64,000 nucleotides of DNA, from IMG/VR virus record IMGVR_UViG_2541047802_000007. One strand, 5' to 3'. This document shows positions 11,309-64,000 of this stretch, one piece after another. The position numbers and the translations under genes are program-made. Source of the stretch: a virus. Taxonomy: Duplodnaviria; Heunggongvirae; Uroviricota; Caudoviricetes. Within the stretch, counting starts at the first letter, position 1. Every line of letters begins with the position of its first letter. The notes under the pieces were generated by a model, which saw only the letters and a list, made by a program, of their open reading frames with translations, was not told where the DNA came from and made no database searches.

Positions 11309-11321
11309 CAAAAGAAGTGTT

Positions 11322-13814: not shown

Positions 13815-13926
13815 TGCAATTAATAAAATGATTATAGTGGCCTTACATTAGTAAGGCCGCTACTCACTATTAAATACTTTAATTTGCATCAAGAACAGCA
13901 GTGTCAGCCCTAGGTCTCGGACTTTG

Positions 13927-14049: not shown

Positions 14050-14092
14050 CTGACAAAAGCAGGAATGATGCCATTTGCTCGTTATTTCTGCA

Positions 14093-14118
14093 TTTTCATA
14101 AACGTTGGTTTGGGAGAA
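14093..14118. other. 26-bp invertase crossover site (pix/hix-like), left
   Basis: ttttcataaacgttggtttgggagaa; inverted copy at 16020..16045. Confidence 0.7.
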
Positions 14119-14559: not shown

Positions 14560-14561
14560 TA

Positions 14562-15579: not shown

Positions 15580-16019
15580 TATGCTGCTCTCACGATATAG
15601 TTAAATGCAATGTTGCGTGGACGGGTATCGACGGGGTTAACGGCCACTGTACCCGACACGGACTGGTCATTACCGTTGCTAACGGTAATGTTACTACTGG
15701 TTGATCCAATCCCTACTGAATCGGTAAATTTAGCACCTGAGCCGCTCAAAGTTCCCGAGATGATAGCTAGCTCCACATAAAAAGTACCTACAGTTGGCTC
15801 TTGTGTTGACAGCACCGCACGCCTTGAATCAACGCCGCGCCCATCATCCCAGCCACGAATAAACTCACCACGTAAATCAGGCAATTTATTTGTCGGATAA
15901 GCCTTTGCCAGTTCCGGGTATTCTTCAGCAGAAAAAGCCGCACCGTTGCATTTCAGCCAGCCTGTTGGCGGTGTGGCTGAAGGCCATGGAACAGGCACAC
16001 CAACAGGTAATGCAGAGCC
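15579..16019 (-). CDS. Tail-fibre C-terminal variable segment (Sv' type), no own start
   Basis: GEGSALPVGVPVPWPSATPPTGWLKCNGAAF... shares N-part and last 13 aa with gpH C-terminus. Confidence 0.65.
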   Translation of the reverse strand, partial: GSALPVGVPVPWPSATPPTGWLKCNGAAFSAEEYPELAKAYPTNKLPDLRGEFIRGWDDGRGVDSRRAVLSTQEPTVGTFYVELAIISGTLSGSGAKFTDSVGIGSTSSNITVSNGNDQSVSGTVAVNPVDTRPRNIAFNYIVRAA

Positions 16020-16045
16020 TTCTCCCAAACCAACGTTTATGAAAA
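16020..16045. other. 26-bp invertase crossover site, right
   Basis: ttctcccaaaccaacgtttatgaaaa. Confidence 0.7.
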
Positions 16046-16088
16046 TGCAGAAATAACGAGCAAATGGCATCATTCCTGCTTTTGTCAG

Positions 16089-16211
16089 GGAGATCTACCA
16101 TGCTTATTGGCTATGTACGTGTGTCAACAAATGACCAGAACACAGATCTACAACGTAATGCGCTGAACTGTGCAGGATGCGAGCTGATTTTTGAAGACAA
16201 GATAAGCGGTA
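16089..16211 (+). pseudogene. Pin-like serine invertase, truncated after ~41 codons
   Basis: Same N-terminus as Gin at 56819..57436, then abrupt divergence and stop. Confidence 0.75.
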
Positions 16212-16323
16212 CAAAGTCCGAGACCTAGGGCTGACACTGCTGTTCTTGATGCAAATTAAAGTATTTAATAGTGAGTAGCGGCCTTACTAATGTAAGGCCA
16301 CTATAATCATTTTATTAATTGCA

Positions 16324-18213: not shown

Positions 18214-18637
18214 GGTATACCTGTAAGCGACATTGTACAAAAGTGAGGAGTTAATCTGATTTAGAACAATCATTTTATTTTGCTATGATACAACGTATTT
18301 GTTACCGATTAAGTAAAAAACGCGTCTGAACGCTGACGTTTTAGGGCTTTACTGGTTATTCTTTCTTATCTCTTCATCATCCCATCGGCATCCTGTCGAG
18401 GTTGTTGACTTGTTGTTATTTATTTTGTCTAGGCGCTGTTTAATTATTATTGATAGAATTGATGGTGAGAGGTGATTGAAACCGTAGGCACGTCGTTTGC
18501 AAGGACGTGCTACGACTGGCTGGTGAACTTCCGATAGTGCGAGTATTGAATGATTTCCTACGTGCTAACTAGTGAACAAACAACTCTTCAGTAGACTCTC
18601 AGGTATCATTCAGAGTTTCCTGAACGAAAGTTTTAGC

Positions 18638-18816
18638 TCAATCTTTATCTGCAGTATGTCTAACTGAAAAACTATCGTTGCTGGTGGCTTTTACGATCAT
18701 CTCCACATCGTCATAACGCTTGCCAATGTGTTGGGTTAATTCTTCCTTTAACGCGTCCACAGCGCCGTTTGGCATTTGGTCATTTTGTCTTTGGCTATGG
18801 AGATCTCAATACGCAT
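18638..18816 (-). pseudogene. dinI-like gene disrupted by frameshift
   Basis: Mirror of 11322..11500. Confidence 0.4.
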
Positions 18817-18829
18817 AACACTTCTTTTG

Positions 18830-18849
18830 TACTGCGTTTGTAGACAGTA
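18830..18849. promoter_or_regulatory. LexA-box-like sequence
   Basis: Mirror of 11289..11308. Confidence 0.35.
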
Positions 18850-19016
18850 TTATTCTTATCTGTGTAAATAAACAGTATCAAGACTTCGTTTTAGCTGCAT
18901 AAGAAAAAAGAGATGGATACATTCGGAAAGATTTTGATGGTGGTAGGCTAAGTGAATAGCCTAAAGGTGTTTTACCCCAATTATTCCCCGGTATTTCTCC
19001 GCATAAAAAACAATCA

Positions 19017-19045
19017 TAAAAAAACCAGCCATAATAGGCTGGTTC
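19017..19045 (-). terminator. Rho-independent terminator
   Basis: Mirror of 11093..11121. Confidence 0.5.
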
Positions 19046-19057
19046 TTAAGGGATTTT

Positions 19058-19103
19058 TGGTCGGCACGAGAGGATTTGAACCTCCGCCCCCCGACACCCC
19101 ATG
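19058..19103 (-). other. tRNA-Pro 3' fragment (att remnant)
   Basis: Mirror of 11035..11080. Confidence 0.65.
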
Positions 19104-19213
19104 ATGGCGAGCTACGATCTTAAGGGCTGTTATGTGCCAGAAACAGAGATTTTTATATTCCTCACTCTGGAAATCATAATGCTAACTAGTAGGGATTATA
19201 AGTTGTCAATTGA

Positions 19214-20038
<825 letters not shown>

Positions 20039-20248
20039 TTTCGGAATGGAACTGGATTTCATATTGTGGTCAATTTTCGCACATGATGAGAGAGAGCCCG
20101 CGATAGTTGGCTCTTTTGTGCAAAGTCTGACCAATATTTATTCCCCTCACTGGACGTTACACTCAGACTATCCACTGCTGACATGCCAGTGATTTAAAAG
20201 GAATGCTGCTGATTTAAATAGCGAAAACTTCACTAAAGAGGATGTAAA

Positions 20249-20542
20249 ATGACACTACCCAAGTTCAGGAATGACCTACAAGTTGAAGCTAATTACTCTA
20301 TCAATCAAGCCCGTGAAATGGTTGGGAAAACGGTGAAATCTGTCCAGATTGGTTTTCAGAAAACTGGAGTACAGGTTCATCAGACTGAAATGCTAATCAT
20401 CACGTTTACAGATGACACTCAACTTGCCATCTCAACAGGTTCAAACGTTGTAAACATAACGTCGTTAATTGGGCGTGGTGGCAGTTGCGAGCTTAAGCCT
20501 GCGGATTTTCACGTAGATTTTGATTTGACCTGGCAAAGATGA
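20249..20542 (+). CDS. Hypothetical small protein
   Basis: ORF track 97 aa. Confidence 0.35.
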   Translation: MTLPKFRNDLQVEANYSINQAREMVGKTVKSVQIGFQKTGVQVHQTEMLIITFTDDTQLAISTGSNVVNITSLIGRGGSCELKPADFHVDFDLTWQR

Positions 20543-20629
20543 CAAATCCGGCCGTGCCAGCGGCCTTTTTCATGCTCGTCCTGCTGGCACGGCCGCAAAC
20601 CTAATCCTGTAAGGTGACACTTAAGCGTG

Positions 20630-21418
20630 TCAGAACTGCGCAATAACAACCTTCACTTTTCCTTCCGCGTCTTTAGATTCCAGATCGGTTTTCACGCCCA
20701 AAGGATTATTTATGTAGCAATCCGGGTCATATACAAACAAGATCAACGTATCGCAGTCTTGGTGAGCGCGGTAGCGCGCCATATCAATAAGCAACTCTCC
20801 ACCAACTTTACCCGCTCCCAGAGATTCACGGGTTTTCTTCACCTCTATCACAATTTTCTCTTTTTTCAAAAGAAAGTCCTGTCTTGAGGCCGCGCCCGCA
20901 AAGCTGGGGGTATACTCTTCCGCCCTAATATCATTAAAATGAAGCGTCAGCAGTGCATAAATCAAATCCTGTACGTCATACTCATCATTAACTTCAAGCG
21001 GCGCACGGCCGTTGTACCGCCTCTTTAACTGGCGAACAAAGGTCGGAAACCTGTTAAGAATATTAAGTACGAGGCTCAGCGGCGAACCTTCTTGAGGAGT
21101 ATTAGTACTGACAGCAGAGTGCGCAAGATCATCTCTCGCCGCATCAAACAACGGTTTATAACTTTTGATCAGTGTATTGTAATTAGAAGACCACCTGCTG
21201 TTTACAGTATTGAAGTCATTGTAATAATCAGACTCTTTTCCGTAGCTGTCCTCTATTAACTTTTTCACTCTGGCGATCCAGTTTTTATATTTACCAGAAT
21301 CAACATAGGTTTCCATAGTGTGAGTGAGAACGTTCTGCGCAGTATATTTTGTGGAAATGAGCGCATCGTAATCTTTCTCAAGCGCCCTAAATCTTTCTTC
21401 CAGTTGTAGATTTGTCAT
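20630..21418 (-). CDS. Hypothetical protein with PD-(D/E)xK-like motif
   Basis: Mirror of 8720..9508. Confidence 0.45.
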   Translation of the reverse strand: MTNLQLEERFRALEKDYDALISTKYTAQNVLTHTMETYVDSGKYKNWIARVKKLIEDSYGKESDYYNDFNTVNSRWSSNYNTLIKSYKPLFDAARDDLAHSAVSTNTPQEGSPLSLVLNILNRFPTFVRQLKRRYNGRAPLEVNDEYDVQDLIYALLTLHFNDIRAEEYTPSFAGAASRQDFLLKKEKIVIEVKKTRESLGAGKVGGELLIDMARYRAHQDCDTLILFVYDPDCYINNPLGVKTDLESKDAEGKVKVVIAQF

Positions 21419-21612
21419 AGTGCCTTCCAGGCTGTATAGTCGGATAACAAGGTCTGTGCGTATGGAAATTCTACCATACTTAGCCTTCTTTTCTTCACAC
21501 TGGGCGTAACAGCCATTCTGTCCAGCCCCCCTAGCGTGATCTTACCTGCTGCGGCATTCGGTTGTCTTAGCTCCGGAATAATATTCGGAGATGCATAACT
21601 GTCCAGTGCCAT
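21415..21612 (-). CDS. Hypothetical small protein
   Basis: Mirror of 8526..8723. Confidence 0.3.
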   Translation of the reverse strand: MALDSYASPNIIPELRQPNAAAGKITLGGLDRMAVTPSVKKRRLSMVEFPYAQTLLSDYTAWKAL

Positions 21613-21844
21613 ACGCGCCCCAATCCTATATATCTACTTCATAGCTTTTCAGTAAGGAATGAATATATTAATTTCTGTGATGATTAGTATCGGAGGGTAC
21701 GAATGACTATATATCGCTCATAGCAAACGCTCACATCTGTTATGGTTAGAAAGCAGGAAGAGGGGGACAGGCTACGGTATAAGAAAAGTGGGTTGTTGTT
21801 TATGGCCGCATTGAGAGTGTCGAATCAGGCTAAAGAGAAGAAGC

Positions 21845-21870
21845 AAAAAAGCCCGCATCAGCGGGCTTTC
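21845..21870 (-). terminator. Rho-independent terminator beyond att
   Basis: Mirror of 8268..8293. Confidence 0.5.
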
Positions 21871-21997
21871 ATTTCACTTCGGAGCCGCGGCTCCTTTGCG
21901 TATCCTTTTATGTCTCCTCACCGTCTGGTCGGTGTCCTGCTGAGACTTCTAACTTCCTGTTTTTGTTGGTGTTGTCCTTACACCGTCCAATCATGAT

Positions 21998-22042
21998 TGG
22001 TGGAGCTGGCGGGAGTTGAACCCGCGTCCGAAATTCCTACAT
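21998..22042 (-). other. ssrA: ssrA 3'-end fragment = prophage att core
   Basis: Revcomp matches tmRNA 3' end ending CCA; 3' end points away from prophage. Confidence 0.8.
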
Positions 22043-22158
22043 ACCATTATAACATGTTGCAAAACAACTATTTATGTTAATTTTCAATCACTTAAGTTTA
22101 CGATGTATTACCTTGTTTTATGTGTTTTTAACTCTTTGCCGCCATTATGCCGCCACTC

Positions 22159-31436: not shown

Positions 31437-32846
31437 ATGTCTTTTCTTGATATAAAAAAAATGAGTAAAGAGAGGTTTAATGCTTTTGTTGATTGGACCA
31501 GAATGCCAAATACTGAACTTTTAGGCTATGAGTTTGAGTGGTACTGTAGTCCGAGAGAGTTCCTGCTAGGGGCACTATTATTGGATCAAATCGATGAAGA
31601 TTATAGCGGTATTGTTTTAGCAAGAGACTTAAGTGGGAGATATAGATGTATTGACCTATTTACTAGTGTTTCAGAAATGAATTCTGCACGAGCAAAACTA
31701 AAGAAATTAATGCGGAAGCATACTAAATTAAACGTAAAAGTATTTCCACAAGGTGATGAAACTTATAAAGCAATGGATTTATTCACACCTATAGTTACAC
31801 CAGATAAACTTCATCATCATTTTTCATTATTTGGTAAATATGCGAACTGGTCGCCTGCAACAGGGATAATCAAGGAAATGATGAATCATTTTGAGGATGT
31901 CGACGGGAATTTTATAGAGCAGTTTCAGACAACAGGTTTTGATGCCCGGCTATGGGAGTTATATCTTTTCGCATATTTACGAGAGGAACACTTTTGGCTA
32001 GATAGGCAGTTTAATGCCCCTGATTATGTGGCACGTAAGTATGGTAATACTATTTGCATTGAAGCTGTAACGGTTAATCCAACAGGGAATGATATTAATC
32101 AATCATCTGAAATGCTATCTGAACCTAAAAGTAAGGAAGAATTGCTAGAGAAAATAGAGAATTATATGCCGATTAAATTTGGAAGTTCTCTCTATTCTAA
32201 ACTGAAAAAGAAAACTCGATACTGGGATCTAGAACATGTTAAGGGGAATCCTTTAATTTTCGCAATTGCTGATTTTCATGAACCAAACTCTATGATTTGG
32301 TCCCATAGTGCACTTTGGCAGTATCTTTATGGTATTCGCTATGAGCATGTTAAATCTGAAGATGGATGTTACAGTTTAGCAACTAAGAAAATTATATCGC
32401 ATCAATTTGAGAAAAAGGAAATTCCTTCAGGCTTTTTCTTCTTGGATGAGTCTGAAAATATTTCGGCCGTCCTTAGTTCTAATAGTGGTACTATATCGAA
32501 GTTTAATCGGATGGGAAAACTGGCTGGTTTTGGAAGAAGTGACCTTAGATTATTTAGGAGTGGTTACTGCCATGATCATGACCCAGAGGCATTATATCCA
32601 GCAGCATTTAGTTTTGAAGTGAAAGAAGGCGATATTACAGAAACATGGGCAGAAGGTTTAAATATGTATCATAATCCTAATGCTAAATATCCTGTAGATC
32701 CTGATTTATTTCCTTCAATAGCACATCATTTTCTTGAAAATGGAGAGGTTAAAAGTATAGTGCCTGACTTTCATCCGTATACATCTATTACCATAAATGT
32801 CTTAACTCAAAATAATAAAAAACAAAAAATCAGAGTAGATGAGTAA
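31437..32846 (+). CDS. AT-rich cargo protein of unknown function, 469 aa
   Basis: Long ORF in low-GC island between cos-like site and portal gene; no recognisable motif. Confidence 0.6.
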   Translation: MSFLDIKKMSKERFNAFVDWTRMPNTELLGYEFEWYCSPREFLLGALLLDQIDEDYSGIVLARDLSGRYRCIDLFTSVSEMNSARAKLKKLMRKHTKLNVKVFPQGDETYKAMDLFTPIVTPDKLHHHFSLFGKYANWSPATGIIKEMMNHFEDVDGNFIEQFQTTGFDARLWELYLFAYLREEHFWLDRQFNAPDYVARKYGNTICIEAVTVNPTGNDINQSSEMLSEPKSKEELLEKIENYMPIKFGSSLYSKLKKKTRYWDLEHVKGNPLIFAIADFHEPNSMIWSHSALWQYLYGIRYEHVKSEDGCYSLATKKIISHQFEKKEIPSGFFFLDESENISAVLSSNSGTISKFNRMGKLAGFGRSDLRLFRSGYCHDHDPEALYPAAFSFEVKEGDITETWAEGLNMYHNPNAKYPVDPDLFPSIAHHFLENGEVKSIVPDFHPYTSITINVLTQNNKKQKIRVDE

Positions 32847-40811: not shown

Positions 40812-41205
40812 AGCGGTGCCTTATGTCCGCAATAACCCGGACAAACTGCATCTGTTTGTGGATAACGGTTCGCTGGTTGCCACGGGGGCCAGCTCCATGT
40901 CGTGGGAGTACCGTTACACACTGAACGCGGTGATTGAGGATTTCAGCGGCGACCAGAATCTGCTGATGGCCCCGGTTTTGCTGTGGCTGAGGGATAACCA
41001 GCCCGATGCCATCAATAACCCGGCGTTACGGGAAAAGCTATTCACCTTTGAGGTGGATATTCTGCGCAACGATGTCTGTGATATCAGCCTGAACCTGCAA
41101 CTGACGGAACGTGTGCTGGTCAGCACTGACGGCAGTGTGTCGAGCGTTGAAGCTATAGCGGAACCTGATGCACCTGAAGAAATGTGGACGGTGAAATGTG
41201 GCTGA
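40774..41205 (+). CDS. R: Tail completion protein (gpR-like)
   Basis: caggag RBS then GTG; position before S. Confidence 0.6.
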   Translation: MNKPQSLRHALNKAVPYVRNNPDKLHLFVDNGSLVATGASSMSWEYRYTLNAVIEDFSGDQNLLMAPVLLWLRDNQPDAINNPALREKLFTFEVDILRNDVCDISLNLQLTERVLVSTDGSVSSVEAIAEPDAPEEMWTVKCG

Positions 41206-41656
41206 ACTGCAGAAGGTGGACGACTGGCTGAGTGCCTTGCTGGCGAATCTGGAACCAGCCTCGAGAAGCCGCATGATGCGCCAGCTGGCGCAGGAACTTC
41301 GCCGGACACAGCAGCAGAATATCAGGATGCAGCGCAACCCTGACGGCAGCAGCTATGAACCGCGACGGGTAACAGCACGCAGTAAAAAAGGCCGTATCAA
41401 ACGTCAGATGTTTGCAAAGCTGCGCACCACAAAATACCTGAAAACTGCCGCCAGCGCCGACTCTGCCAGCGTGCAGTTTGAAGGTAAGGTACAGCGCATT
41501 GCCCGTGTTCACCATTACGGTCTGCGTGATCGCGTCAGTCGCAAAGGACCGGACGTACGGTATGCAGAGCGGCGTTTGTTGGGTATTAACAATGATATTG
41601 AGAACAACGTTAAGAATGTTTTTTATCAATGGTTAATTAATAACAATAAGCCGTAA
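41198..41656 (+). CDS. S: Tail completion protein (gpS-like)
   Basis: 152 aa. Confidence 0.65.
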   Translation: MAELQKVDDWLSALLANLEPASRSRMMRQLAQELRRTQQQNIRMQRNPDGSSYEPRRVTARSKKGRIKRQMFAKLRTTKYLKTAASADSASVQFEGKVQRIARVHHYGLRDRVSRKGPDVRYAERRLLGINNDIENNVKNVFYQWLINNNKP

Positions 41657-41682
41657 AAATTTTAGATTAAAAATAAGTTATG

Positions 41683-41709
41683 AACGGGTGGCCTAGGAGG
41701 CCACCCGTT
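41683..41709. terminator. Bidirectional terminator hairpin between S and convergent cargo gene
   Basis: aacgggtggcc-tagga-ggccacccgtt. Confidence 0.6.
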
Positions 41710-41711
41710 AT

Positions 41712-43412
41712 TTATTCAAGGTGATTTGAAAGAGTAATTAATGGCTCAATCGGTTGGAACGCTTTTAAGGATGTTAATATGTTTTTAACTTCCTTTGATA
41801 CGATAGATAACGGGTTGTCTGTTACAGATAAGTAGGTGGTTAAATCTTGACCTGAAACACGGATAACATGTGGTAATATCGCAGTTATAACTGGTGTCCA
41901 AAGGTCGATTAAATCATCCAGAGAGTTATTTTTAGATAATGCTGTATCATATTTATATTTTATTTTCTTCTTGTTCAAAGGTTTATCTGTTAATTCTTCA
42001 AGTATTTCTCCGATGACGGATATTAAAAAGAATCGAGACTTTAAATTTTGGAGGAATAATAAGTTATCCTCATCTACTTTAATTTTATTCTCTTTTGCAC
42101 GGATTTGAGATTTTACTTTTTCTATAGCTTTTGAAATAGTGTAAGCACATAAAATATGCTGGGCTTTCGAATCATGAAAGGCATTGTCATAGGCTGATTT
42201 TGTATCGAAAACGTAGTTTTTACCTCTATTGGCGCTAACATAATCCCCATGTAACGCTATCAGCGGTTGAGCAACAGACTCAATGCCAAATAAAGAACCA
42301 GTATTTTCGAAGCCGCGTTTCAGTGAATATGTATAACCAAGAGTGGAAAATTCTTCTGCCACCTGTTTTTGTTCTGTGCTGTTAGAGTAGTGATCCCAGG
42401 TTGTAATATGATTCTGAGTATTATTATACTGGACTATTTTTTTTACTTTGTCCGCATCATTACATTCAATAACCTTACAAAGGACTTTTAGGCCATCTAA
42501 TTTTTGTATATCTTGAACTGAACCAATAGAACCAGTGGTTTGAGCTCCATTTATGATTGAAACTCCTTCCAACAACCCTTTTTCTTTGTTGAATTTTGTT
42601 GTTAGGATTGATACACCATTGTTAAAGACAAAGAAGTCTTTTGGGGATGTTTCTGCGGTATTCTTAATTGATGAGTTTATTTTTCTTCTCTTATTTAATC
42701 CCATGAACCCCCTATAATTAGCAGAAAATAATTCTGCTCCATAATTTTTGTATAAATAATTTAGCCAAGTGCCGTTTGCAAAGCCAACATGTGAAGTCCA
42801 GCCATCACCTTGTACAGAATTTATAAGTTCGCCATTGAACTTTATATTGTCAGTCACAACAATTTGTTGTGATAGCGCAATATACAATTTTTCAAGACTA
42901 TTAACACCAAGTTCTCTGTAAGTTACCTCAATTTCTTTGTCTGCAAATCTACCTGCTAGATAGTCACGACAAGTTTCAAGCTCAGTTTTAACCTGCTCAG
43001 ATTCGGCACAATTATGGATATATAATAATTCAACAGCTTCAATTTCGTTATCATCAATTAATTTTCTAACCTCAGAAATTTTTGCTCTTAATTTTGCATT
43101 TGGAGACTCTCCTGAGCCTGCCATAATCCACGCTAAAGCAGTGTTTAAGTCAGAAGCTTTATTTGCAGGCGCAACTATTTTAAGTGCTTGCTGATTGCAG
43201 TAGTAACCCTGAGCAATAAATAACGTTGAATTAATTACGGTAATGAAGTCTATTTTCTTATCGTTTCCACCATCAGTAAGTCCATCAGATGCTAGCTTAT
43301 CAAAATCGGATTCATCTAAGTAAAGACCTAATGACCATAAAAGATGTGCGTTACTAGTCCCGTACTTTTCTAACAGGGAAGTTTTATTTTGCAGTTGTCT
43401 TAAGTGTTCCAT
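41712..43412 (-). CDS. AT-rich cargo protein, 566 aa, possibly Abi/AIPR-like
   Basis: Opposite-strand ORF in low-GC island between S and V; contains NGAQT; family not verified. Confidence 0.55.
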   Translation of the reverse strand: MEHLRQLQNKTSLLEKYGTSNAHLLWSLGLYLDESDFDKLASDGLTDGGNDKKIDFITVINSTLFIAQGYYCNQQALKIVAPANKASDLNTALAWIMAGSGESPNAKLRAKISEVRKLIDDNEIEAVELLYIHNCAESEQVKTELETCRDYLAGRFADKEIEVTYRELGVNSLEKLYIALSQQIVVTDNIKFNGELINSVQGDGWTSHVGFANGTWLNYLYKNYGAELFSANYRGFMGLNKRRKINSSIKNTAETSPKDFFVFNNGVSILTTKFNKEKGLLEGVSIINGAQTTGSIGSVQDIQKLDGLKVLCKVIECNDADKVKKIVQYNNTQNHITTWDHYSNSTEQKQVAEEFSTLGYTYSLKRGFENTGSLFGIESVAQPLIALHGDYVSANRGKNYVFDTKSAYDNAFHDSKAQHILCAYTISKAIEKVKSQIRAKENKIKVDEDNLLFLQNLKSRFFLISVIGEILEELTDKPLNKKKIKYKYDTALSKNNSLDDLIDLWTPVITAILPHVIRVSGQDLTTYLSVTDNPLSIVSKEVKNILTSLKAFQPIEPLITLSNHLE

Positions 43413-43550
43413 TTACCAAGCTTCTTTTTTGTTAATGAGATAACTCTCAATAATTTATAGATAGTAGTCGTTTTTTGCCAGTTGTTTGTGACAGCCGTGA
43501 TACAACTATCAAAGCTACTTCTCAATTTTGAGATATAGCAGTCTATTTTC

Positions 43551-44129
43551 ATGAACACACAACTAACCGAAATCATGCGCCTTATCACCAACCTGATCCG
43601 CACTGGGGTAGTCACCGAAGTGGACCGGGAAAACTGGCTTTGTCGGGTGAAAACAGGCGACTTAGAAACCAACTGGATCAGCTGGCTGACCCTGCGTGCC
43701 GGGAATGCCCGGACATGGTGGCGACCATCGGAAGGTGAGCAGGTGGTGCTGCTGAGTCTGGGCGGCAATCTGGAGACCGCCTTTGCGCTGCCCGCTGTCT
43801 ATTCGAATCAGTTCGCACCACCGTCGACGTCGGCGGACGCCTGCGTGACAGAACATCCTGACGGTGGCTGGTTTGAATACGAACCCGCCACCGGGCGCTG
43901 GTATGTCAGGGGCATCAAATCCATGGTTATTGAGGCTGCCGACAATATCACCCTGAAAACCAGTGAGTTTGTGCTGGAGGCTGACCGCACGCGTATTAAT
44001 AGTGAAGTAGTGATCAATGGCGGCGTTACCCAGGGCGGCGGTGCGATGAGTTCTAACGGGATCGTGGTTGATGCGCATCAGCATACTGGCGTCCTGAAAG
44101 GCGGCGATACAACCGGAGGCCCGGTATGA
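43551..44129 (+). CDS. V: Baseplate assembly protein V
   Basis: 192 aa. Confidence 0.75.
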   Translation: MNTQLTEIMRLITNLIRTGVVTEVDRENWLCRVKTGDLETNWISWLTLRAGNARTWWRPSEGEQVVLLSLGGNLETAFALPAVYSNQFAPPSTSADACVTEHPDGGWFEYEPATGRWYVRGIKSMVIEAADNITLKTSEFVLEADRTRINSEVVINGGVTQGGGAMSSNGIVVDAHQHTGVLKGGDTTGGPV

Positions 44130-55242: not shown

Positions 55243-55329
55243 ATGATGAATTGTCCAAAGTGTGGTCATGCGGCACACACAAGGAGCAGTTTTCAAGTAA
55301 CTGAAAGCACCAAAGAGCGTTACTGCCAG
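55243..55329 (+). pseudogene. ogr: Ogr/B-type zinc-finger late activator, truncated after codon 29 by Mu-like insertion
   Basis: MMNCPKCGHAAHTRSSFQVTESTKERYCQ then stop supplied by first bases of inserted element. Confidence 0.7.
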
Positions 55330-55410
55330 TGAAGCGGCGCACGAAAAGCGCGAAAGCGTTTCAAATAAAATACGAAAACTCAAAACTTTCGCGCTTCAAT
55401 TGAGACAGTT
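55330..55410. promoter_or_regulatory. Mu-type right end with transposase-binding repeats
   Basis: tgaagcggcgcacgaaaagcgcgaaagcgtttcaaataaaatacgaaaac closely resembles the Mu R-end as recalled. Confidence 0.75.
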
Positions 55411-55422
55411 GTTTTATGTATG

Positions 55423-55869
55423 TCAGTTTCGTTTACATTTATATGTCTTAAAAATATTCACATCATCTCGGATATAAAGATTTTTTCCTGATTTATCAAC
55501 GATAAAATACTTTATAACCGCAGGATTTCTAGTCAAAGCATAGAGATAATCAGTCCCTTTAATCTTTTCATCCTTGTCTTGTTCGTCAATTTGGCCTGTT
55601 TCTATCTGAGTGTATAGTTCACCTGTATCAAGGTCTGTCCATGACCCCATATCAACGCCCATATGCATACGAATACCGTGGCAGGTCCAAAAACCAGAGG
55701 CAGGGGCTTTATTTGCAACACTCTTATCTGGATCTATCCCGGCGGACCTTAAGACTGCATCAGCAGCCACTTCAGGATCAAAATCTTTTTCTTGAGCGTG
55801 ATTGACTGAGGAGGCGGTTAGTACGAATAGGCTGATGATGGTACTGATTAGCAATTTTGATTTTTTCAT
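55423..55869 (-). CDS. Secreted hypothetical protein (signal peptide), AT-rich
   Basis: MKKSKLLISTIISLFVLTASSVNHA signal-like N-terminus; between mom and element end. Confidence 0.5.
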   Translation of the reverse strand: MKKSKLLISTIISLFVLTASSVNHAQEKDFDPEVAADAVLRSAGIDPDKSVANKAPASGFWTCHGIRMHMGVDMGSWTDLDTGELYTQIETGQIDEQDKDEKIKGTDYLYALTRNPAVIKYFIVDKSGKNLYIRDDVNIFKTYKCKRN

Positions 55870-55913
55870 CTAATATGCTCCGTATGTGAGTAAATACATA
55901 AATTTATATGATA

Positions 55914-56651
55914 CTAATCAGAACTGCTTTTTGGGTATGGCTGAATCCTGAATAGTTTGGTATTTAGCCGCTTTCTTGCTCGCTTGTTCAGGAACCTGAT
56001 GTAGCGATACTGATTAAATTTGTGCACCACGGCACGCTCTTTATTAGCCCGTAAATACATGCCTCGTTGTCCACCGCGCTTAATTGCGTTCATCGTTATC
56101 TCGTGATACCACTCACCATCCAGCTCGTAGAACGTGCTTTCATGGCTGCCAATAAAATCAAAATTTGACGCCTGATACACAACGCCAGCACGTCCGCAGC
56201 GTTCGTCTGCAAAAGACTGAACCCACTCCACTGACGGATACAGTAACCTTATGGTTTTCAGTGCATAACTGATGGCCCGTGATTCAGAGTTGCGGGGCAT
56301 GTCGTCGTGTAGCCACATGCGGTTCAACTCCATATAGCCCCGGTTATCCGTTTCAAGCACGACACGACGACCAGAGTTGGGGTTAAGGGCATATCCCCAC
56401 TGGAGAACGCCAACCAGATCGCGTCCGCTGAATACTCCCAAGTGGAGGTAAGAGTTATTCACAAAACGGCGGGAATAGTGCTTTGTCTGAATAATTGTGC
56501 GGGCCAGCCAGCAGGATATGGTTTCAACGCGCAGCTCCTTTGAACCATAGCCAACAATCTGGCTTTCATACTCAATAACGCACGGTTTCGTCAGAATGCG
56601 TGATTTCTTCTCTTTTCCCACAATGTTTCTCCGTGGGATGCTCGCAGGCAT
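55914..56651 (-). CDS. mom: Mom-like DNA modification protein (start uncertain)
   Basis: 245 aa ORF overlapping com 3' end, downstream of gin-com. Confidence 0.55.
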
Positions 56652-56760
56652 TCAGCATTATGATATGACGTTTGCAACGCGGACACCTGATTTCAATGTG
56701 ATCAAAGGAATCCGCCTTAAATAACAGTTTGTTGCAGTTTTTACAGCGAATTGATTTCAT
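56572..56760 (-). CDS. com: Com zinc-finger translational activator of mom
   Basis: 62 aa [14 protein letters not shown]...RCPRCKRH four-Cys finger. Confidence 0.7.
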
Positions 56761-56818
56761 CTCACCTCCTTTGCATCAATTCGCCACTATCTTAAAAAAC
56801 ATCGTGGGTTGAGTGTGG

Positions 56819-57436
56819 TTATTGGGGCATAATCGATCTGTATTGCCGATCGATTTGATTGATTCGATCGTCGTTTTCTATATGCGTTCGTTTCGCGGGG
56901 TGTTTTTTATACAGAGTTGACAGAGCCACATCATAGATCAATGCAACCTGCTTGCGGGGGATTCCTTGTACTAATAAACGCCCGGCCTGCTCCCATTCCG
57001 CTTTGGTTAGTTTAGGTGGTCGCCCACCAATACGGCCTTTATTTCTGGCGGCAGCAAGTCCAGCCATCGTTCGCTCGATGATTAGTTCTCGTTCCATTTC
57101 AGCCAGGGCACCCATAACGTGGAAGAAAAAACGCCCCATTGGAGAAGATGTGTCTATGCTGTCGGTAAGACTGCGAAAATTAATCCCTCGCTCCCGTAGT
57201 TCCCCGACGAGGGAAATCAGATGTTTCATGCTTCGCCCGAGGCGATCCAGTTTCCAGACAACCAGTGTGTCACCTTTTTGAAGGCGCTTTAACGCGCGTT
57301 TTAATCCAGGTCTGTCTGTCCTTGTTCCGCTTAATTTATCTTCAAATATTTGTTCACATCCTGCACAAACAAGAGCGTTTCGTTGCAGGTCTGTATTCTG
57401 GTCATTTGTTGATACCCTTACATAGCCAATCAGCAC
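56819..57436 (-). CDS. gin: Gin/Pin-family serine DNA invertase, intact
   Basis: 205 aa; catalytic Ser in YVRVSTNDQ; C-terminal HTH. Confidence 0.85.
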   Translation of the reverse strand: MLIGYVRVSTNDQNTDLQRNALVCAGCEQIFEDKLSGTRTDRPGLKRALKRLQKGDTLVVWKLDRLGRSMKHLISLVGELRERGINFRSLTDSIDTSSPMGRFFFHVMGALAEMERELIIERTMAGLAAARNKGRIGGRPPKLTKAEWEQAGRLLVQGIPRKQVALIYDVALSTLYKKHPAKRTHIENDDRINQIDRQYRSIMPQ

Positions 57437-57490
57437 TCTGGATCTCCCGTTTAAAAGCGCAAATCACGCCATGCAGGCCGGAAACAACCA

Positions 57491-57516
57491 TTATCTAAAA
57501 CCTCGGTTTACAGGAA
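57491..57516. other. gix crossover site (invertase-proximal)
   Basis: ttatctaaaacctcggtttacaggaa, inverted repeat of 60486..60511. Confidence 0.75.
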
Positions 57517-58377
57517 ACGGTAAACAGGGCTGGTAACGCCGTGCAAAAAAATGGCGATACCTTGTCCGGTGGGCTTACTTTTGAAAATGACTCAATCCTT
57601 GCCTGGATTCGAAATACTGACTGGGCGAAGATTGGATTTAAAAATGATGCCGATGGTGACACTGATTCATACATGTGGTTTGAAACAGGCGACAACGGCA
57701 ATGAATATTTCAAATGGAGAAGCCGCCAGAGCACCACAACAAAAGACCTGATGACGCTGAAATGGGATGCACTAAATATTCTGGTAAATGCCGTCATTAA
57801 TGGCAGTCTTGGAGTTGGTACGACGAATGCGTTAGGTGGTAGCTCTATTGTTCTTGGTGATAATGACACCGGATTTAAACAGAATGGAGACGGCATTCTG
57901 GATGTTTATGCTAATAGTCAGCGTGTATTCCGCTTTCAGAATGGAGTGGCTATTGCTTTTAAAAATATTCAGGCTGGGGATGGTAAAAAATTCACGCTAT
58001 CCAGCTCCAACAACTCCACGAAGAACGTAGGGTTTAATTTATGGGGCGCTTCGTCAAGGCCAACTGTTGCAGAGCTTGGCGATGATTCTGGCTGGCATTT
58101 CTATAGTCAGCGAAATACAGATAACTCAGTAATATTTGCTGTTAACGGTCAGATACAACCCAGCAACTGGGGGAATTTTGATTCCCGCTATGTGAAAGAT
58201 GTTCGCCTAGGTACGCGTGTTGTTCAATTGATGGCGCGTGGTGGTCGTTATGAAAAAGCCGGACACGCAATTACCGGATTAAGAATCATTGGTGAAGTAG
58301 ATGGCGATGATGAAGCCATCTTCAGACCAATACAAAAATACATCAATGGCACATGGTATAACGTCGCACAGGTGTAA
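57517..58377 (+). CDS. Alternative tail-fibre variable segment S'v (silent in this orientation)
   Basis: Frame opens at crossover site and would fuse to Sc after inversion. Confidence 0.65.
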   Translation, partial: TVNRAGNAVQKNGDTLSGGLTFENDSILAWIRNTDWAKIGFKNDADGDTDSYMWFETGDNGNEYFKWRSRQSTTTKDLMTLKWDALNILVNAVINGSLGVGTTNALGGSSIVLGDNDTGFKQNGDGILDVYANSQRVFRFQNGVAIAFKNIQAGDGKKFTLSSSNNSTKNVGFNLWGASSRPTVAELGDDSGWHFYSQRNTDNSVIFAVNGQIQPSNWGNFDSRYVKDVRLGTRVVQLMARGGRYEKAGHAITGLRIIGEVDGDDEAIFRPIQKYINGTWYNVAQV

Positions 58378-58380
58378 ATT

Positions 58381-58914
58381 ATGCAGCATTTAAAAAATAT
58401 TAAGTCAGGAAATCCAAAAACAAAAGAGCAATATCAGCTAACAAAGAATTTTGATGTTATCTGGTTATATACAGAAGACGGTAAAAACTGGTATGAGGAA
58501 GTAAATAACTTTCAGGAAGACACCATAAAGATTGTTTACGACGAAAATAATATTATTGTTGCCATAACCAAAGATGCCTCCACACTTAACCCTGAAGGTT
58601 ATAGCGTCGTTGAGATTCCTGATATTACCGCCAACCGGCGTGCTGACGACTCAGGTAAATGGATGTTTAAAGATGGCGCAGTCATTAAACGTGTATATAC
58701 CGAAGAAGAGTTGCGCCTACAGACGGAAAACCAGAAAAAAATATTATTACAGCAGGCCAGAGAAAAAACGCAGTTCTGGCAAACACAGCTTGCGCTGGGA
58801 ATTATCAGCGATTCAGACAGGCAAAGACTCATTAACTGGATGTTATACATGCAGCAGGTTGATGCCACAGATACCTCTGTTCTTCCTGTAACATTCCCGG
58901 AACAACCAGAATGA
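58381..58914 (+). CDS. Tail fibre assembly protein U'
   Basis: 177 aa. Confidence 0.7.
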
Positions 58915-58942
58915 GACAAGGCCCGCTATCGGGCCTTAATTT

Positions 58943-59470
58943 TTATTCAGGCTTTTGTGGCCATTCAGGCTTTGCCGTATCTACACGGCTGACCAGAACG
59001 CTGTAGCGTTCCCATGATTCCAGCCGTGTGCGTTCCTTGTCTGTTGCCATATTCAGCCTTACAGCACGTTCCAGCGGTTGAATCACAGACTCCGCTTCAG
59101 AAAGCAAAGCGGCTTTTTGTAACTCAGCCTGCTGCTGCAGTTCCTGTTCTGTATATTCCCGTTTTACCACTTTACCATTCAGAAACATCCAGTTTCCGTA
59201 ATTATCTGCGCGACGATTTGCCGTAATATCGGATACTTCAACAACACTTAAACCTTCCGGGTTAATAGTTGAAACATCTTTGCTTACGGTAACAATCACA
59301 TTATTTTTATCGTATGCAATTTTTATAGTATCTGGTTGAAAGTTTTTTTGTTCTTCGTACCAGTTTTTACCATCTTCAGTATAAAGCCAGACAACTCCAG
59401 CTTTTTTGGTTAACTGGTATTGTTCTGGTGTTTTTGGGTTTCCTGCTTTAATGTTTTTTAAATGCATCAT
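58943..59470 (-). CDS. U: Tail fibre assembly protein U
   Basis: 175 aa. Confidence 0.7.
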
Positions 59471-59471
59471 G

Positions 59472-61007
59472 TCAAATACTCACAACGTTATAATATGTCC
59501 CACCAATCAACTTCTGAATAGGTCTTCTGGTTAATGTATCAATAAACTCATCGGTGTTGCTGTTTCCGGCTGCGGTCAGAACATATCCAGAAGTATCCCA
59601 ATAACCAGGGCCTCGCCATGCTGATATTGATTCTGCGCTACCAAGTCGAATGTCTCTTACATATGTGCTATTGAGATAATCAGCTAAATTTGAACCCCAA
59701 CACCCGCCAAATATATTTCCATCGGTGTTATAACGGATGCCACCCGCAACAAGAGCACCCGGTGAAATAAAAGATTTATCGTTCGGGTTAAACTGCCATA
59801 AAGCATCATTACCGCCATCGCCACGCATATGAATACATGGAACCGGAAATCCATACTGTTCTGTCAGCAAATAACCAAAGCTGACCGCGCCGGGATAGCC
59901 CTGTCCATTGCGAATGGACAAGCCCTTAACTATCGGCACGTAATGACCACCAGGAGTGGGATTCCAGGCAAACTGCGTCTGAACAAAAGGCGCGGTGGCA
60001 TTATTCAACTGGTCTGCAAATGCGCCACTTCCATCAGGAATTATTCCCTGATGAATATATGCAACCCGCTTATAAAAATCAGCAGATGCGGGTTGAAGCC
60101 CGAATGCCAGTTGTCCATTTGAATAGAATAAAAGGACACCGTCGCCGCCCTGTTTAATACCAGTGTCGTTATCTCCGAGAGTAATGGAATTACCGCCCAG
60201 TGCGTTATCTGTACCAAGCGCCAGCCCACCATCAATTTTGGCCCCGTGGCTGACCGATATAGCTCCTGTTCTCAGATTTATAGCGAATGGCCTTAATGGG
60301 CCGATATCACCGTTTTCGCCTTGTCCTTCAGCCGTAGGGATGAAATGAAGGTACTCTTCTGAACGACGGAAAATAAGACCGAAGGCATCATTAAAAATTC
60401 GCAGCGCATTCATCGTGCCAATTTTCAGTTCTCCGGTCATTTTATCGCCGGAACGCTGAACGGCGTTACCAGCCTTGTTTACCGTTTCCTGTAAACCGAG
60501 GTTTTGGATAAACAGCGGCTTATTGGGAATATCTGCTCCGTTCCGGTCTTTTGCCAGACGGGCATTGGCATTATCCATCGCAATTTTCACCGCTTTTGCA
60601 GTGGCTGCCAGCGTTTCACTGGGGCTGTCAGTGGCACTGGTTAGCTGAACGAGTCCTTTTTTGTTCAGGCTGGCATCATAGATATCCAGATTTTCACGTG
60701 CTGTACGCTGTGCTGATGCCCCGGCAGTTTTAATTTCGCTGAGGTTATTTTTTATCAGCAGCGCGTTATTGCTCATAATGGCTTTAATGGACAGTGCAAG
60801 CTGGTTTAATTTTGTTTTATCCGGTTGAATACCGGCTTCTTCCAGCGTGTTTAATAACTCCGCCTGCACAATATTAAACCAGTCCATGCCGGGCCATGTG
60901 ATAACATTATTCCCGTCACCTTCTGAAAACCAGCGAACGATAGCACTACGCTGGGCGGATACGGGCGGCATGACGGTTACGCCGCTGTCGTTATCAATAT
61001 AAAACAT
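59472..61007 (-). CDS. S: Tail fibre protein S (constant Sc + variable Sv, current orientation)
   Basis: 511 aa; gix site lies in frame (FIQNLGLQE) inside the gene. Confidence 0.8.
60486..60511. other. gix crossover site (inside S)
   Basis: ttcctgtaaaccgaggttttggataa. Confidence 0.75.
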
Positions 61008-61549
61008 TAGTTATCTCCGTCATGGTAAACAAATTTATAAATCTGATGTGCGGGTTTATATTTCTCCAGTAAACATTCCAGCGCACCCGATTCATAAACA
61101 CGTAACGGCGTCAGAACATTATCCAGCACCGTTGCGTTGCGATAATTTTTAATACCGTAAATATTGACCTGCGTAACCCACTGGCCTTCTGTGGAATCCG
61201 TCAGCCTAACGGTAAAACCGTACTGTGCAGCCAGCCATTCATAAAAGCGCCGACTCAGATTGCCGGTCATACGCATTTTATTCGCGGCAGCCCGCTGGCG
61301 TTCGGACAAGGTGCCGTTTTCGCTGGTACAGTCCGGCAACCCCAGAAATGATTCCCACTCCCCCAGATACCAGCGGGATGTGGACGGGAAACGCTCCCGC
61401 AGCATTTGCCGCGCATCATCCGCCGCAGTGGCAATCACGTCGCTGATGGCCTGCGCCAGCGCAGATAATTTGCTGTCGGGGCTTTTATTCCAGGCAAGCC
61501 CTGACGGCAGTAATTGCAGAAAGGCCGTCTGATAGGGTGTTACAGCCAT
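61007..61549 (-). CDS. Tail protein (Mu gp48-like)
   Basis: 180 aa, position between baseplate J-like gene and S. Confidence 0.55.
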   Translation of the reverse strand: MAVTPYQTAFLQLLPSGLAWNKSPDSKLSALAQAISDVIATAADDARQMLRERFPSTSRWYLGEWESFLGLPDCTSENGTLSERQRAAANKMRMTGNLSRRFYEWLAAQYGFTVRLTDSTEGQWVTQVNIYGIKNYRNATVLDNVLTPLRVYESGALECLLEKYKPAHQIYKFVYHDGDN

Positions 61550-62622
61550 TCAATTGTCCCCGGTGTTAACAGTTCCGTATTCTCCGAACGCTGGATCTCT
61601 GTCGGGAAACGCACTTCAAAATCATCCAGACCGGTAACACCTGCCACCGCACGGATAATACGGGAGGGGGCAAGTGCGCCGCCCGGCGTCACCTCATTAA
61701 AAAACATGGTATTAATGGCGTGGGTAATAGCCTGTTTCAGTTCGGCTGTCTTCGGTGATATATAAATCCGTGGATTTACCGGCTTTGCCTTTGGCGCAAA
61801 TACAGTGACATTTACACCGTCAGGCTGTCCGACAATCAGACCGGTGATCGGGTCAGTATGACCGGCGATATAATCCGCCACGCGTTCCACGTCTGCCGGT
61901 TGTGGAAAAATATTGCTCCGGTTATCCATAACAAACGTCACCCCGACTGTGCCACCGCCTTTCCATGTCGGAAAACACCAGGCACGGGTAACGCCGCTGA
62001 CTTCACGTGCCCAGCGAACGTAATCAAACTGATTACCGCCGAACGGAGGGTACTGGACACGATATTCCAGCCGTGACAGCAGTTCCGCTGCACTCTCAAT
62101 ATCAGCTCCACCGGAAAACCCTTTTACAGTGATGGCATCGGAAACAACACAGGCAACCGGGGTGATCAACGTTAAAAGGGTATTCTCACCGGTATTTCCT
62201 GCTTCACCGGCAGCCAGTGCGGTAACGGTAATTTCCGTCGTTCCTGCACGGTCAATCACAATGGCATCAGCCAGGCTGTAAACCACACCATCAGCACGCT
62301 GCCAGCGTGTACCGGCAGGAATGGTGGTCGCTGCCGATGTGGTGACAGTCAGCGGGCCGCTGGCGGCTGTCGCCTGTTTGCGGCGCACGCCCCAGAACCG
62401 GCAGTGCTCCAGCAACTCATCTTCATCTGCTGTCGACGGGATAATCTGCCGTCCAACCCATGAAATATGCTCGTGACAACCGGCAGCAAGCCCTGCCTGG
62501 GCGTAAGCAATGGCACTCAGCGTTTTTTCACGGGCCTGAGGCCAGCTACCCGGCAGGCGCTGTTCAATATTCTGTTCTGTACGGGCAATCAGCGATGATA
62601 ATGTCGGTGGTGAATAAGCCAT
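61540..62622 (-). CDS. Baseplate J-like protein (Mu gp47-like)
   Basis: 360 aa. Confidence 0.65.
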   Translation of the reverse strand: MAYSPPTLSSLIARTEQNIEQRLPGSWPQAREKTLSAIAYAQAGLAAGCHEHISWVGRQIIPSTADEDELLEHCRFWGVRRKQATAASGPLTVTTSAATTIPAGTRWQRADGVVYSLADAIVIDRAGTTEITVTALAAGEAGNTGENTLLTLITPVACVVSDAITVKGFSGGADIESAAELLSRLEYRVQYPPFGGNQFDYVRWAREVSGVTRAWCFPTWKGGGTVGVTFVMDNRSNIFPQPADVERVADYIAGHTDPITGLIVGQPDGVNVTVFAPKAKPVNPRIYISPKTAELKQAITHAINTMFFNEVTPGGALAPSRIIRAVAGVTGLDDFEVRFPTEIQRSENTELLTPGTIEWL

Positions 62623-63060
62623 TTAAACCCCGTTAAATGCTGCTTTAAACTCATAAGGAATAACGGAACCATCCGGTAATGTCAGTGCAATGTAGAGGTA
62701 TAACCAGCCCTGATGTAACTGTTCCGCTCTGACGTTAACCGCACTTACCCGGCCTGCTGTTTTCAGCCATTCCAGCGCCTCTTCGGCATACCCTCTGGCA
62801 CGTTCCAGCGTATCCTGTGTGGCTTTTTCACGTGATAACAGCCACAACCGCGAACCAATGGGGCGGTCGCGGTAACTGTCACCCCACCATCCACGGCGAT
62901 CATCTGAACCATCCGGCAGCGTGTCAGAATCCAGCGCGCGCCGGTCGGTAAACAGGGAGATTGTCACATCGGTTGTCAGGCTGTCGTCGGTCAGCATATC
63001 AATGCCATCCTGTGCAATATCGCCGCGTCCGTTCGTCCAGATAATGGCTAAATCGGTCAT
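62623..63060 (-). CDS. Baseplate protein (Mu gp46-like)
   Basis: 145 aa. Confidence 0.55.
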   Translation of the reverse strand: MTDLAIIWTNGRGDIAQDGIDMLTDDSLTTDVTISLFTDRRALDSDTLPDGSDDRRGWWGDSYRDRPIGSRLWLLSREKATQDTLERARGYAEEALEWLKTAGRVSAVNVRAEQLHQGWLYLYIALTLPDGSVIPYEFKAAFNGV

Positions 63061-63650
63061 TGCATTGGCCCCGTGGTTCCGCCGCTGTCGCCACGGTGGA
63101 TATGCTTATCCGTCGATTTGCCATTGATGATGGCATCCGGGGCAGTAATATTGCTGTCGAACTGGCTTTTACCTTTAACGCCCAGACCTTTCTGGATCTC
63201 AACGTCGCCGGTAAACGTGGTTCTGGGTGTATCAACGGTCATACTTTCATCGGCGTAAATCTCAACCGTTTTACAGGTAATGATGCAGCGCCCGTCCTTT
63301 GTCAGCCTGATACGATGTCCCTCGTGGTGGTAAATGCCTGCATCACCCGGTTCAAGATTTGTCGGGCGGTAGCGGCGGTCTTCCACCACAACGGCAATCC
63401 CCTGATCACGTTGTGCACCCACACAGGCAATCAGCGCCTCTGCGCCCGGCAGAGGAACGCTGAAATGCCCGTAATTTTGCAGGCGCTCCACTTCATCAGA
63501 TTCCTCATCATCCAGCAGACCGACCTGCAGGTTCTGAACCTTTCGCCCGTCGTTAATCACGTTAACAACGGCACGCGCAAGCATCAGACGCACACGACGC
63601 ATCAGCGGTGCCAGCAGGCGGTTCATGGCGGAATCATTTACTCTTTCCAC
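63057..63650 (-). CDS. Baseplate assembly/spike protein V-like (Mu gp45-like)
   Basis: 197 aa. Confidence 0.6.
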   Translation of the reverse strand: MERVNDSAMNRLLAPLMRRVRLMLARAVVNVINDGRKVQNLQVGLLDDEESDEVERLQNYGHFSVPLPGAEALIACVGAQRDQGIAVVVEDRRYRPTNLEPGDAGIYHHEGHRIRLTKDGRCIITCKTVEIYADESMTVDTPRTTFTGDVEIQKGLGVKGKSQFDSNITAPDAIINGKSTDKHIHRGDSGGTTGPMQ

Positions 63651-64000
63651 GGCGGCGTTTTCTCCGGGTGTCTGCGATAATAATCTTCAACCAGCGCATC
63701 AATACCGCCGTTACTGTCGCCGCCTTTCCTGTTTTTACGGTCGCTTTCAACCGGCACCAGAAAGCCTTCGCGTGGTGCAAGGCTGACGCGGGTTTTCAGC
63801 CCGTCCTGGTCATTCAGTATCAGGGTGACTTTGCTGACCAGTAATTCTGTGGTTTTGATGGCATATATCGAGGCATCAATAGTGACCAGCAGGTTCGGCA
63901 TCCAGAGTTGCCCGTCCTTGCGTGTCCATCCGTCAATTTCTGCCTCAAAGGTGATGGATTTTGCCAGTCTGCGGCGTTGCTCACGCAGGGCGCGGGCCTG
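63638..64000 (-). CDS. Tail/baseplate protein (Mu gp44-like), partial: 5' end beyond window
   Basis: Frame stays open upstream of track M at 63901 to window edge. Confidence 0.45.
   Translation of the reverse strand, partial: QARALREQRRRLAKSITFEAEIDGWTRKDGQLWMPNLLVTIDASIYAIKTTELLVSKVTLILNDQDGLKTRVSLAPREGFLVPVESDRKNRKGGDSNGGIDALVEDYYRRHPEKTPPWKE

Follow-up and report, generated by a model that had tools for sequence, protein, structure and literature searches.

Why should a tail-gene cluster that is read in one direction carry in its midst a long gene read in the other? The question is raised by a P2-like prophage in the IMG/VR virus record IMGVR_UViG_2541047802_000007, of which we analysed a stretch of 64,000 nucleotides (nt), hereafter the window. 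The late genes S, V, W, J, I, H and G all lie on the plus strand, and between S (41198-41656; Phage_tail_S/virion morphogenesis) and V (43551-44129; baseplate V) stands a monocistronic open reading frame (ORF) of 566 codons with an ATG start, on the minus strand at 41712..43412. We consider it rather probable that this gene, a member of the AIPR/AbiU family, works by itself as a defence cargo against phages, lodged in the S-V site of the prophage.

A minus-strand gene of the AIPR/AbiU family

An earlier note, made from the sequence alone, had described an opposite-strand, AT-rich gene at this place, and its coordinates, strand and composition all held on re-examination. The guanine-plus-cytosine (GC) content is 0.32-0.36 across the ORF and 0.55-0.60 in the late genes on both sides. 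An ORF of this length in DNA of 34% GC is not a chance product, because the longest ORF in 2000 shuffles of the surrounding island averaged 81 amino acids (aa) and never exceeded 177 aa, and the probability of 566 codons without a stop at the island's composition is about 3e-20. The prophage is the same as that of Escherichia coli S88 (99.997% identity), where the late genes are annotated as P2-type morphogenesis genes.

The assignment to AIPR, which the earlier note had proposed, is confirmed by sequence profiles. Pfam PF10592 (AIPR), for which the cutoff is 25 bits, matches residues 229-498 with 90.9 bits (E 1.6e-25), spanning profile positions 1-289 of 308, and the same profile matches all 46 aligned homologs. 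The PADLOC AbiU profile (PDLC02357) matches residues 115-511 (E 1.7e-24, 84.9 bits; profile positions 138-513 of 537), leaving the N-terminal ~114 residues uncovered, and PHROG 1841 ('Abi alpha-like') gives a full-length match at 4e-146. In RefSeq the identical protein, WP_000400690.1, found in E. coli S88 and three other complete genomes, is named 'AIPR family protein'. An exhaustive profile search returned 7667 representative clusters at E<=1e-3, of which 393 also pass E<=1e-30, and the full-length architecture of ~570-600 aa is widespread across phyla. The novelty of the find itself is low: the gene is uncharacterised, standard tools already annotate it as AIPR/AbiU, and cargo hotspots of P2 are well described.

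In the predicted structure the protein divides into three parts. The first, at about residues 35-182 (42867..43310, minus strand), is a PD-(D/E)xK (Mrr/FokI-like) nuclease-like domain with a predicted restriction-endonuclease-like alpha/beta fold and the motifs TD47GGND51KKID55, AQ68GY70, ANK85ASDLN and H133-N134. It is followed by a beta-sheet linker and the AIPR core, which has a predicted ParB/sulfiredoxin-like fold (together about residues 183-376; 42285..42866, minus strand) and is marked by N232-Y-R234-G-F, F-N264-N-G266, I-N288-G-A-Q-T292 and N330-N-T-Q-N334. The remainder, about residues 377-566 (41715..42284, minus strand), is an all-helical C-terminal domain as judged from its secondary structure, modelled with a predicted local distance difference test score (pLDDT) of 80-96. 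This is the most variable part of the protein and had the highest nonsynonymous divergence (dN) of the three in three of four ortholog comparisons.

Residue conservation was counted over 238 full-length family members. D51, D55, Q68 and K85 are kept in 236-238 of these, with D55 and Q68 invariant and K85 present in 237, and the position at which the nuclease motif Q-x-K would have its lysine is tyrosine (Y70 here) in 216. The sole member with lysine at position 70 is also the sole member that lacks K85, and the distant AIPR protein pFR77 of a P4 element shows the same lysine/glycine pattern. This exchange suggests that the catalytic lysine was relocated from the Q-x-K position to K85 and that the site is not a dead one. 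A similarity to FokI has been reported independently in a review, according to which lactococcal AbiUi superimposes on that enzyme (PMC13064643).

Within the core, the motifs NYRGF, NNG, INGAQT and NNTQN do not vary among the members counted. The NGAQT segment singled out by the earlier note is indeed present, at residues 288-292 (42537..42551, minus strand), where it sits at a strand-to-helix junction; no member departs from N288, G289 or Q291, and A290 and T292 hardly vary. Two of the core motifs, together with a neighbouring KRGF segment, fall in or beside the three lowest-confidence loops of the model. Because invariant motifs coincide with such loops, the model suggests a putative ligand-binding site in the AIPR core.

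The S-V site and its cargo

Comparison with related phages sets the limits of the insertion. The gene lies in an AT-rich island of 1948 bp (GC 0.34; 41603..43550), which replaces 110 bp of the empty S-V site. In Escherichia phage 500465-1 S and V are adjacent, and its alignment with the window breaks off 18 codons before the end of S, after position 41602, to restart at 43551, the V start codon; many Klebsiella P2-like phages likewise match the flanks only. The last 18 codons of S and its stop (41603..41656, plus strand) are AT-rich and specific to the island, given this break inside S and their difference from the S tail of the empty site. Among 80 related IMG/VR viral loci fetched through the S protein, only the three that carry the AIPR island match residues 1-152 of S, the rest ending at 146-148 or 150.

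The gap between S and V is empty (<100 bp) in 71 of these 80 loci, and six others hold different cargo, 750-970 bp long with 32-33% GC and one opposite-strand gene each. P2 itself carries Orf30 here, a nonessential opposite-strand gene product of 261 aa (GC 0.34), in the annotated order O-operon terminator, Orf30, pV activator site; the earlier note was thus right that P2 has an AT-rich insertion at this position. Because the site is empty in close relatives, holds unrelated cargo in others and holds Orf30 in P2, the locus comparison supports the AIPR gene as cargo in the P2 late-region S-V site, as the note had proposed. The contrary possibility that the note had named, a conserved tail-associated protein without similarity to Abi families, finds no place beside the family matches and the 71 of 80 relatives that do without the gene.

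With variable content, empty sites and unrelated alternative cargo between conserved core genes, S-V (orf30) behaves as a hotspot. Cargo hotspots in P2 are established (PMC9122126; PMC9519451; 10.1101/2024.10.15.618418), the late-region sites have been described as defence hotspots (PMC9519451), and a 2026 preprint describes defence hotspots among the late genes of P2 and finds AbiU in elements of the P2 as well as the P4 type (10.64898/2026.02.27.708500). Identity of S-V with the 'Z/fun' hotspot of Vassallo et al. was considered and rejected, as the P2 annotation puts fun(Z) between G and FI.

The alternative cargo comprises four mutually unrelated kinds of AT-rich single gene on the opposite strand, encoding 231, 271, 253 and 245 aa (our loci L020 6439-7247, L021 6442-7414, L031 6445-7195 and L071 6442-7292). 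DUF6216 is the sole one to reach a Pfam cutoff, another matches HNH_5 weakly, and a PADLOC search with the four proteins returned no match. We regard these four genes as candidates for undiscovered defence genes. By eye, two of the proteins have hydrophobic, possibly membrane-spanning segments, and one contains an RRDTGVH stretch resembling the HEPN Rx4-6H motif.

The island is laid out so as to fit between two late operons. S and the AIPR gene converge, and their 3' ends are separated by a perfect 12-bp G+C-rich hairpin (41683..41709), a candidate bidirectional intrinsic terminator whose T-tract is better on the plus strand. Its folding energy on the two strands is -23.8 and -22.6 kcal/mol (z -4.9 and -5.9), and none of 200 shuffles was equally stable. 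The earlier note had the gene bracketed by a strong bidirectional terminator; this fits its 3' side, where the one strong hairpin stands, and does not fit its 5' side, which is occupied by promoters and has no terminator. There, a candidate sigma-70 promoter of the AIPR gene, CTGGCA-N16-TATAAA, can be read at 43454..43481 on the minus strand, between the gene and a TGT-N12-ACA dyad (43487..43504, plus strand). The dyad is an Ogr/Delta-type activator site of the late promoter pV, centred 55.5 bp upstream of the V start codon.

An identical dyad stands at an equal distance from V in the empty-site phage, and the annotated pV activator-binding site of P2 is likewise centred 55.5 bp from V, although the exact TGT-N12-ACA dyad was not found in P2. 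Since this spacing is retained at the right edge, the cassette would preserve Ogr-dependent expression of the V operon. It sits at the boundary of two late operons, following the end of the O operon, for which it would supply the terminator hairpin, and preceding the Ogr-activated pV. From this position its own promoter would drive the AIPR gene in the lysogen and leave tail gene expression undisturbed.

Orthologs, constraint and the prophage in its window

Orthologs of the gene are spread over prophages, plasmids and chromosomes. Those with 84-85% identity occupy the S-V site of other P2-like prophages, one metagenome contig and one Salmonella, and an 80% ortholog lies at the outer edge of a Pantoea P2-like prophage. 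A 76% ortholog is found on ~41 Klebsiella pneumoniae plasmids, of which one or more come from a carbapenem-resistant strain with blaNDM-1; on one plasmid it adjoins an IS3 element and a NACHT gene. More distant copies adjoin thrC in an Aeromonas chromosome (58%) and lie near IS110 on Burkholderia plasmids (45%). Of 107 plasmid matches, the 40 listed did not include lactococcal AbiU. The orthologs stand alone in each of seven distinct genomic settings, with no common neighbour or flank and with unrelated upstream regions, and the hairpin just past the stop codon differs from one copy to the next. This context supports the view that the AIPR gene is an autonomous, single-gene unit.

The sequences also point strongly to purifying selection across genera. 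Against the orthologs dN is 0.12-0.19, with the AIPR core the most constrained; synonymous divergence (dS) is saturated in nearly all comparisons, so that we rely on dN and a single ratio, 0.04, for the core domain. The GC content of the orthologs is 33.5-35% regardless of host (loci L004, L007, L010 and L096, from hosts in four genera). The genomes of these four genera have a much higher GC content. As all orthologs keep to this narrow range despite saturated synonymous sites, their low GC looks maintained rather than a signature of recent transfer. Within E. coli the island is 100% identical in S88, MS7163, N53 and BEN5202.

In P2-like phages of Klebsiella, the gpA-Q (old/tin) hotspot holds a paralog with 31% identity. 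In Klebsiella phage ST512-KPC3phi13.2 (L015 3953-5704) the paralog's frame reaches ~100 codons upstream of the annotated start at 4259. Because the conserved nuclease motif of the N-terminus falls in this upstream part, the paralog is probably annotated too short in the deposited record.

The same hotspot is filled in our prophage. At 31437-32846 on the plus strand lies an AT-rich gene of 469 aa, labelled 'hypothetical protein' in RefSeq, which PADLOC matches over its full length to PD-T7-1 (E 1.3e-196). Judged from these matches, the prophage would carry two defence cargos at two hotspots, PD-T7-1 and the AIPR gene. We had also considered pFR103 ('Putative HEPN, P2, E. coli S88', Rousset Table S2B) as the gpA-Q cargo of this prophage and rejected it on comparison.

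Further defence genes lie just outside the integrase end of the prophage, at 16324-21418, mirrored at 8720-13814. They comprise a GmrSD-type type IV restriction enzyme (16324-18273; PADLOC mREase_IV, 1415 bits), PD-T4-3 (19232-20038; PADLOC 8.6e-137) and a protein with a restriction endonuclease (REase) domain like Aga_Helical-REase (20630-21418). Next to the integrase (23387-24406) is a 407-aa ORF of ~32% GC on the minus strand (22159-23382), for which neither Pfam nor PADLOC gave a match. Its position corresponds to the integrase-att cargo site of P2, and it is possibly a cargo or defence gene.

The mirrored coordinates reflect a perfectly complementary inverted repeat of 14,119 nt (1-14119 and 16019-30137, with a spacer of 1,899 nt). 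Its left arm begins at the first base of the window and may be longer in the source. Window 1-16038 corresponds to S88 2824241-2840278 in forward orientation and window 16019-55331 to S88 2838359-2799047 in reverse, the fold-back being centred on the remnant of a tail-fibre invertible segment. The left fold-back junction is spanned by no complete E. coli genome at >=99% identity. The repeat probably arose as a fold-back artefact of assembly; the alternative is an inverted duplication that is real.

At the other end of the window, the extreme right end of a Mu/D108-like prophage (TGAAGCGGCGCACGAAAA..., followed by mom, com and gin) is inserted in the ogr gene of the P2-like prophage (55329-64000, junction 55329/55330). 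It aligns with Mu_3F6 and D108 out to their final base, with 99.3-99.8% identity, and cuts ogr to ~29 codons; the junction with ogr was found in no complete E. coli genome. As the insertion lies inside ogr, the late-gene activator of the P2-like prophage is destroyed in the source strain. The prophage may be replication-defective as well, because the frame of the gpA replication endonuclease gene (28089-30529) ends at 30176 and the S88 homolog is annotated as a frameshifted pseudogene.

Proposed function and its place among known systems

What, then, might the gene do for its carrier? In the reading that we favour, the N-terminal Mrr/FokI-like PD-(D/E)xK domain would be the nuclease of the protein. 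The AIPR core, with its ParB/sulfiredoxin-like fold, would probably bind nucleotide or DNA, and core and C-terminal domain together would hold the nuclease off until infection is sensed. Once released, the nuclease would cut nucleic acid early in infection and so block phage development, as is reported for lactococcal AbiU. AbiU confers modest single-gene phage resistance in Lactococcus and delays phage transcription (PMC13064643). We also counted the defence-rich context in favour of this function, namely PD-T7-1, PD-T4-3 and GmrSD in the window and the NACHT gene near the Klebsiella plasmid ortholog.

Several observations weigh against it. The canonical lysine of the nuclease motif is a tyrosine in the 566-aa protein, a Foldseek search of the full model against the Protein Data Bank (PDB) returned nothing at E<=0.001, and the sole match when PDB sequences were searched by profile was a chance one. 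A consensus promoter scan called no minus-strand promoter upstream of the gene, the candidate at 43454-43481 is a weak one, and few E. coli carry the gene (4 of 5426 complete genomes). Lactococcal AbiU itself reduces the efficiency of plating just 10- to 100-fold (PMC13064643). Finally, Rousset et al. cloned and tested the P4 protein pFR77 and list it under 'additional tested systems', not among the validated ones. Since pFR77 has only the core in common with our protein, at 30% identity, this negative weighs only lightly; it does indicate that a protein may belong to AIPR and still show no phenotype when the panel of phages is small.

A more general extension of the defence reading is offered tentatively. 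The AIPR family as a whole may be a nucleotide-gated nuclease, in which an Mrr-type PD-(D/E)xK domain with a moved lysine is joined to a ParB/sulfiredoxin switch with NGAQT replacing DGQQR/GERR. It could then be seen as a reversed-order, non-HNH, single-gene counterpart of GmrSD/SspE, and the other S-V cargos (DUF6216, the HNH-like one and two without a significant family match) would be undiscovered defence genes.

The alternative that survives best keeps the nuclease and changes its mode of action. Here the protein would give direct immunity, not abortive infection, as a type IV-like modification-dependent restriction nuclease. The ParB/sulfiredoxin-like core would play the role of the DUF262 nucleoside triphosphatase (NTPase) of GmrSD, BrxU and SspE, and modified phage DNA would be cut while unmodified host and P2 DNA is spared. 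BrxU and SspE are among the structural neighbours of the AIPR core. At the level of sequence, the Pfam families ParBc, DndB and GmrSD_N matched none of the 46 aligned homologs at E<=5, and when the family profile was aligned by hhalign with the GmrSD protein of the window, the probability was 0.4%, with no ParB-like signal, a weak test given its single-sequence template. We consider direct immunity of this kind rather unlikely.

Less likely still is a cargo that does not act on phages at all and is instead selfish or regulatory, such as an addiction module, a factor directed at plasmids or satellites, or a regulator that binds DNA as DndB does. A link of AbiU1/AIPR to restriction-modification (R-M) systems and to DndB, a regulator, was drawn by Makarova et al., who related the AIPR core to the latter (PMC3506569); the orthologs occur on plasmids as well as prophages, and the P4 AIPR protein that was tested has no validated anti-phage activity. 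Set against this, the residues of nuclease type at the N-terminus show strict conservation, the other occupants of the hotspots in which the gene is found are validated defence genes, neither it nor its orthologs have dnd, ssp or R-M partners nearby, and the lactococcal homolog does give phage resistance. The N-terminal HEPN domain that the same authors state for AIPR proteins (PMC3506569) has no support in the 566-aa protein from either fold or profile. That the gene is a decaying, non-functional passenger, as the interrupted ogr in the window and the frameshifted gpA of S88 might invite one to think of so crippled a prophage, is very improbable for an ORF intact at 566 aa, 100% identical in four genomes, under strong purifying selection across genera and in possession of every family-invariant residue.

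Taken as a single-gene defence cargo, the gene would be a documented example of late-operon boundaries of P2-like prophages serving as plug-in sites. Its presence in a P2 cargo site will not surprise a specialist, and the added value is modest: a concrete domain model for AIPR/AbiU, a family of thousands of clusters for which we found no mechanism in the literature searched, and an S-V hotspot with several cargos lacking known function. S88 and its relatives, an extraintestinal pathogenic lineage of E. coli, carry the gene, and Klebsiella pneumoniae plasmids carry its ortholog; a defence phenotype, if true, would bear on host range in phage therapy.

Among known systems, lactococcal AbiU (AbiUi/AbiU1; Dai et al. 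2001) is reportedly the founding AIPR-type abortive infection protein. It comes from another host phylum and a lactococcal plasmid, whereas our protein sits in a P2 tail-gene cargo site, and its profile leaves the first ~114 residues of our protein uncovered. Unlike lactococcal AbiU, the 566-aa gene has no adjacent HEPN gene (AbiUii).

The P4-like satellite protein pFR77 (E. coli E1167; Rousset et al. 2022 Table S2B) is, like ours, encoded by one AIPR gene that occupies a hotspot of the P2/P4 system. By alignment, the core motifs NxR, NNG, (I/V)NGAQT and NNxQN are common to our protein, pFR77 and the Klebsiella phage AIPR, and pFR77 has an N-terminal Mrr-type domain as well. Only residues 225-366 align, however, at 30% identity; pFR77 keeps the canonical Q-S-K where our protein has Q-G-Y with K85, belongs to another hotspot and element, and was not validated against 8 phages. 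The MZA system offers a more partial likeness. MzaE shares an AIPR-type segment with our protein (PADLOC 5e-9), and we rejected identity with MzaE (NCBIfam NF041935), given 50.3 bits against an equivalog cutoff of 1050 bits and tail genes S and V, not MzaA-D, as neighbours.

GmrSD, BrxU and SspE, which join a DUF262 ParB-like NTPase to a DUF1524 HNH nuclease, provide a possible working analogy, in that one polypeptide with a ParB/sulfiredoxin-fold domain and a nuclease acts alone. They have HNH and DGQQR, whereas our protein has the reversed domain order, PD-(D/E)xK and NGAQT; it does not belong to their family and has no relationship to them at the sequence level.

The closest likeness in genomic arrangement is found in P2 itself. 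Neither Orf30 nor Fun(Z) has sequence or profile similarity to the AIPR protein (hhalign probability 0.2% each), and Fun(Z) lies between G and FI, unlike the AIPR gene at S-V. The Orf30, Fun(Z) and old/tin sites nevertheless share with the AIPR island one plan, in which a nonessential gene rich in AT is set on the opposite strand, after a late-operon terminator and before the next Ogr-dependent promoter, and the site of Orf30 is identical to that of the AIPR gene.

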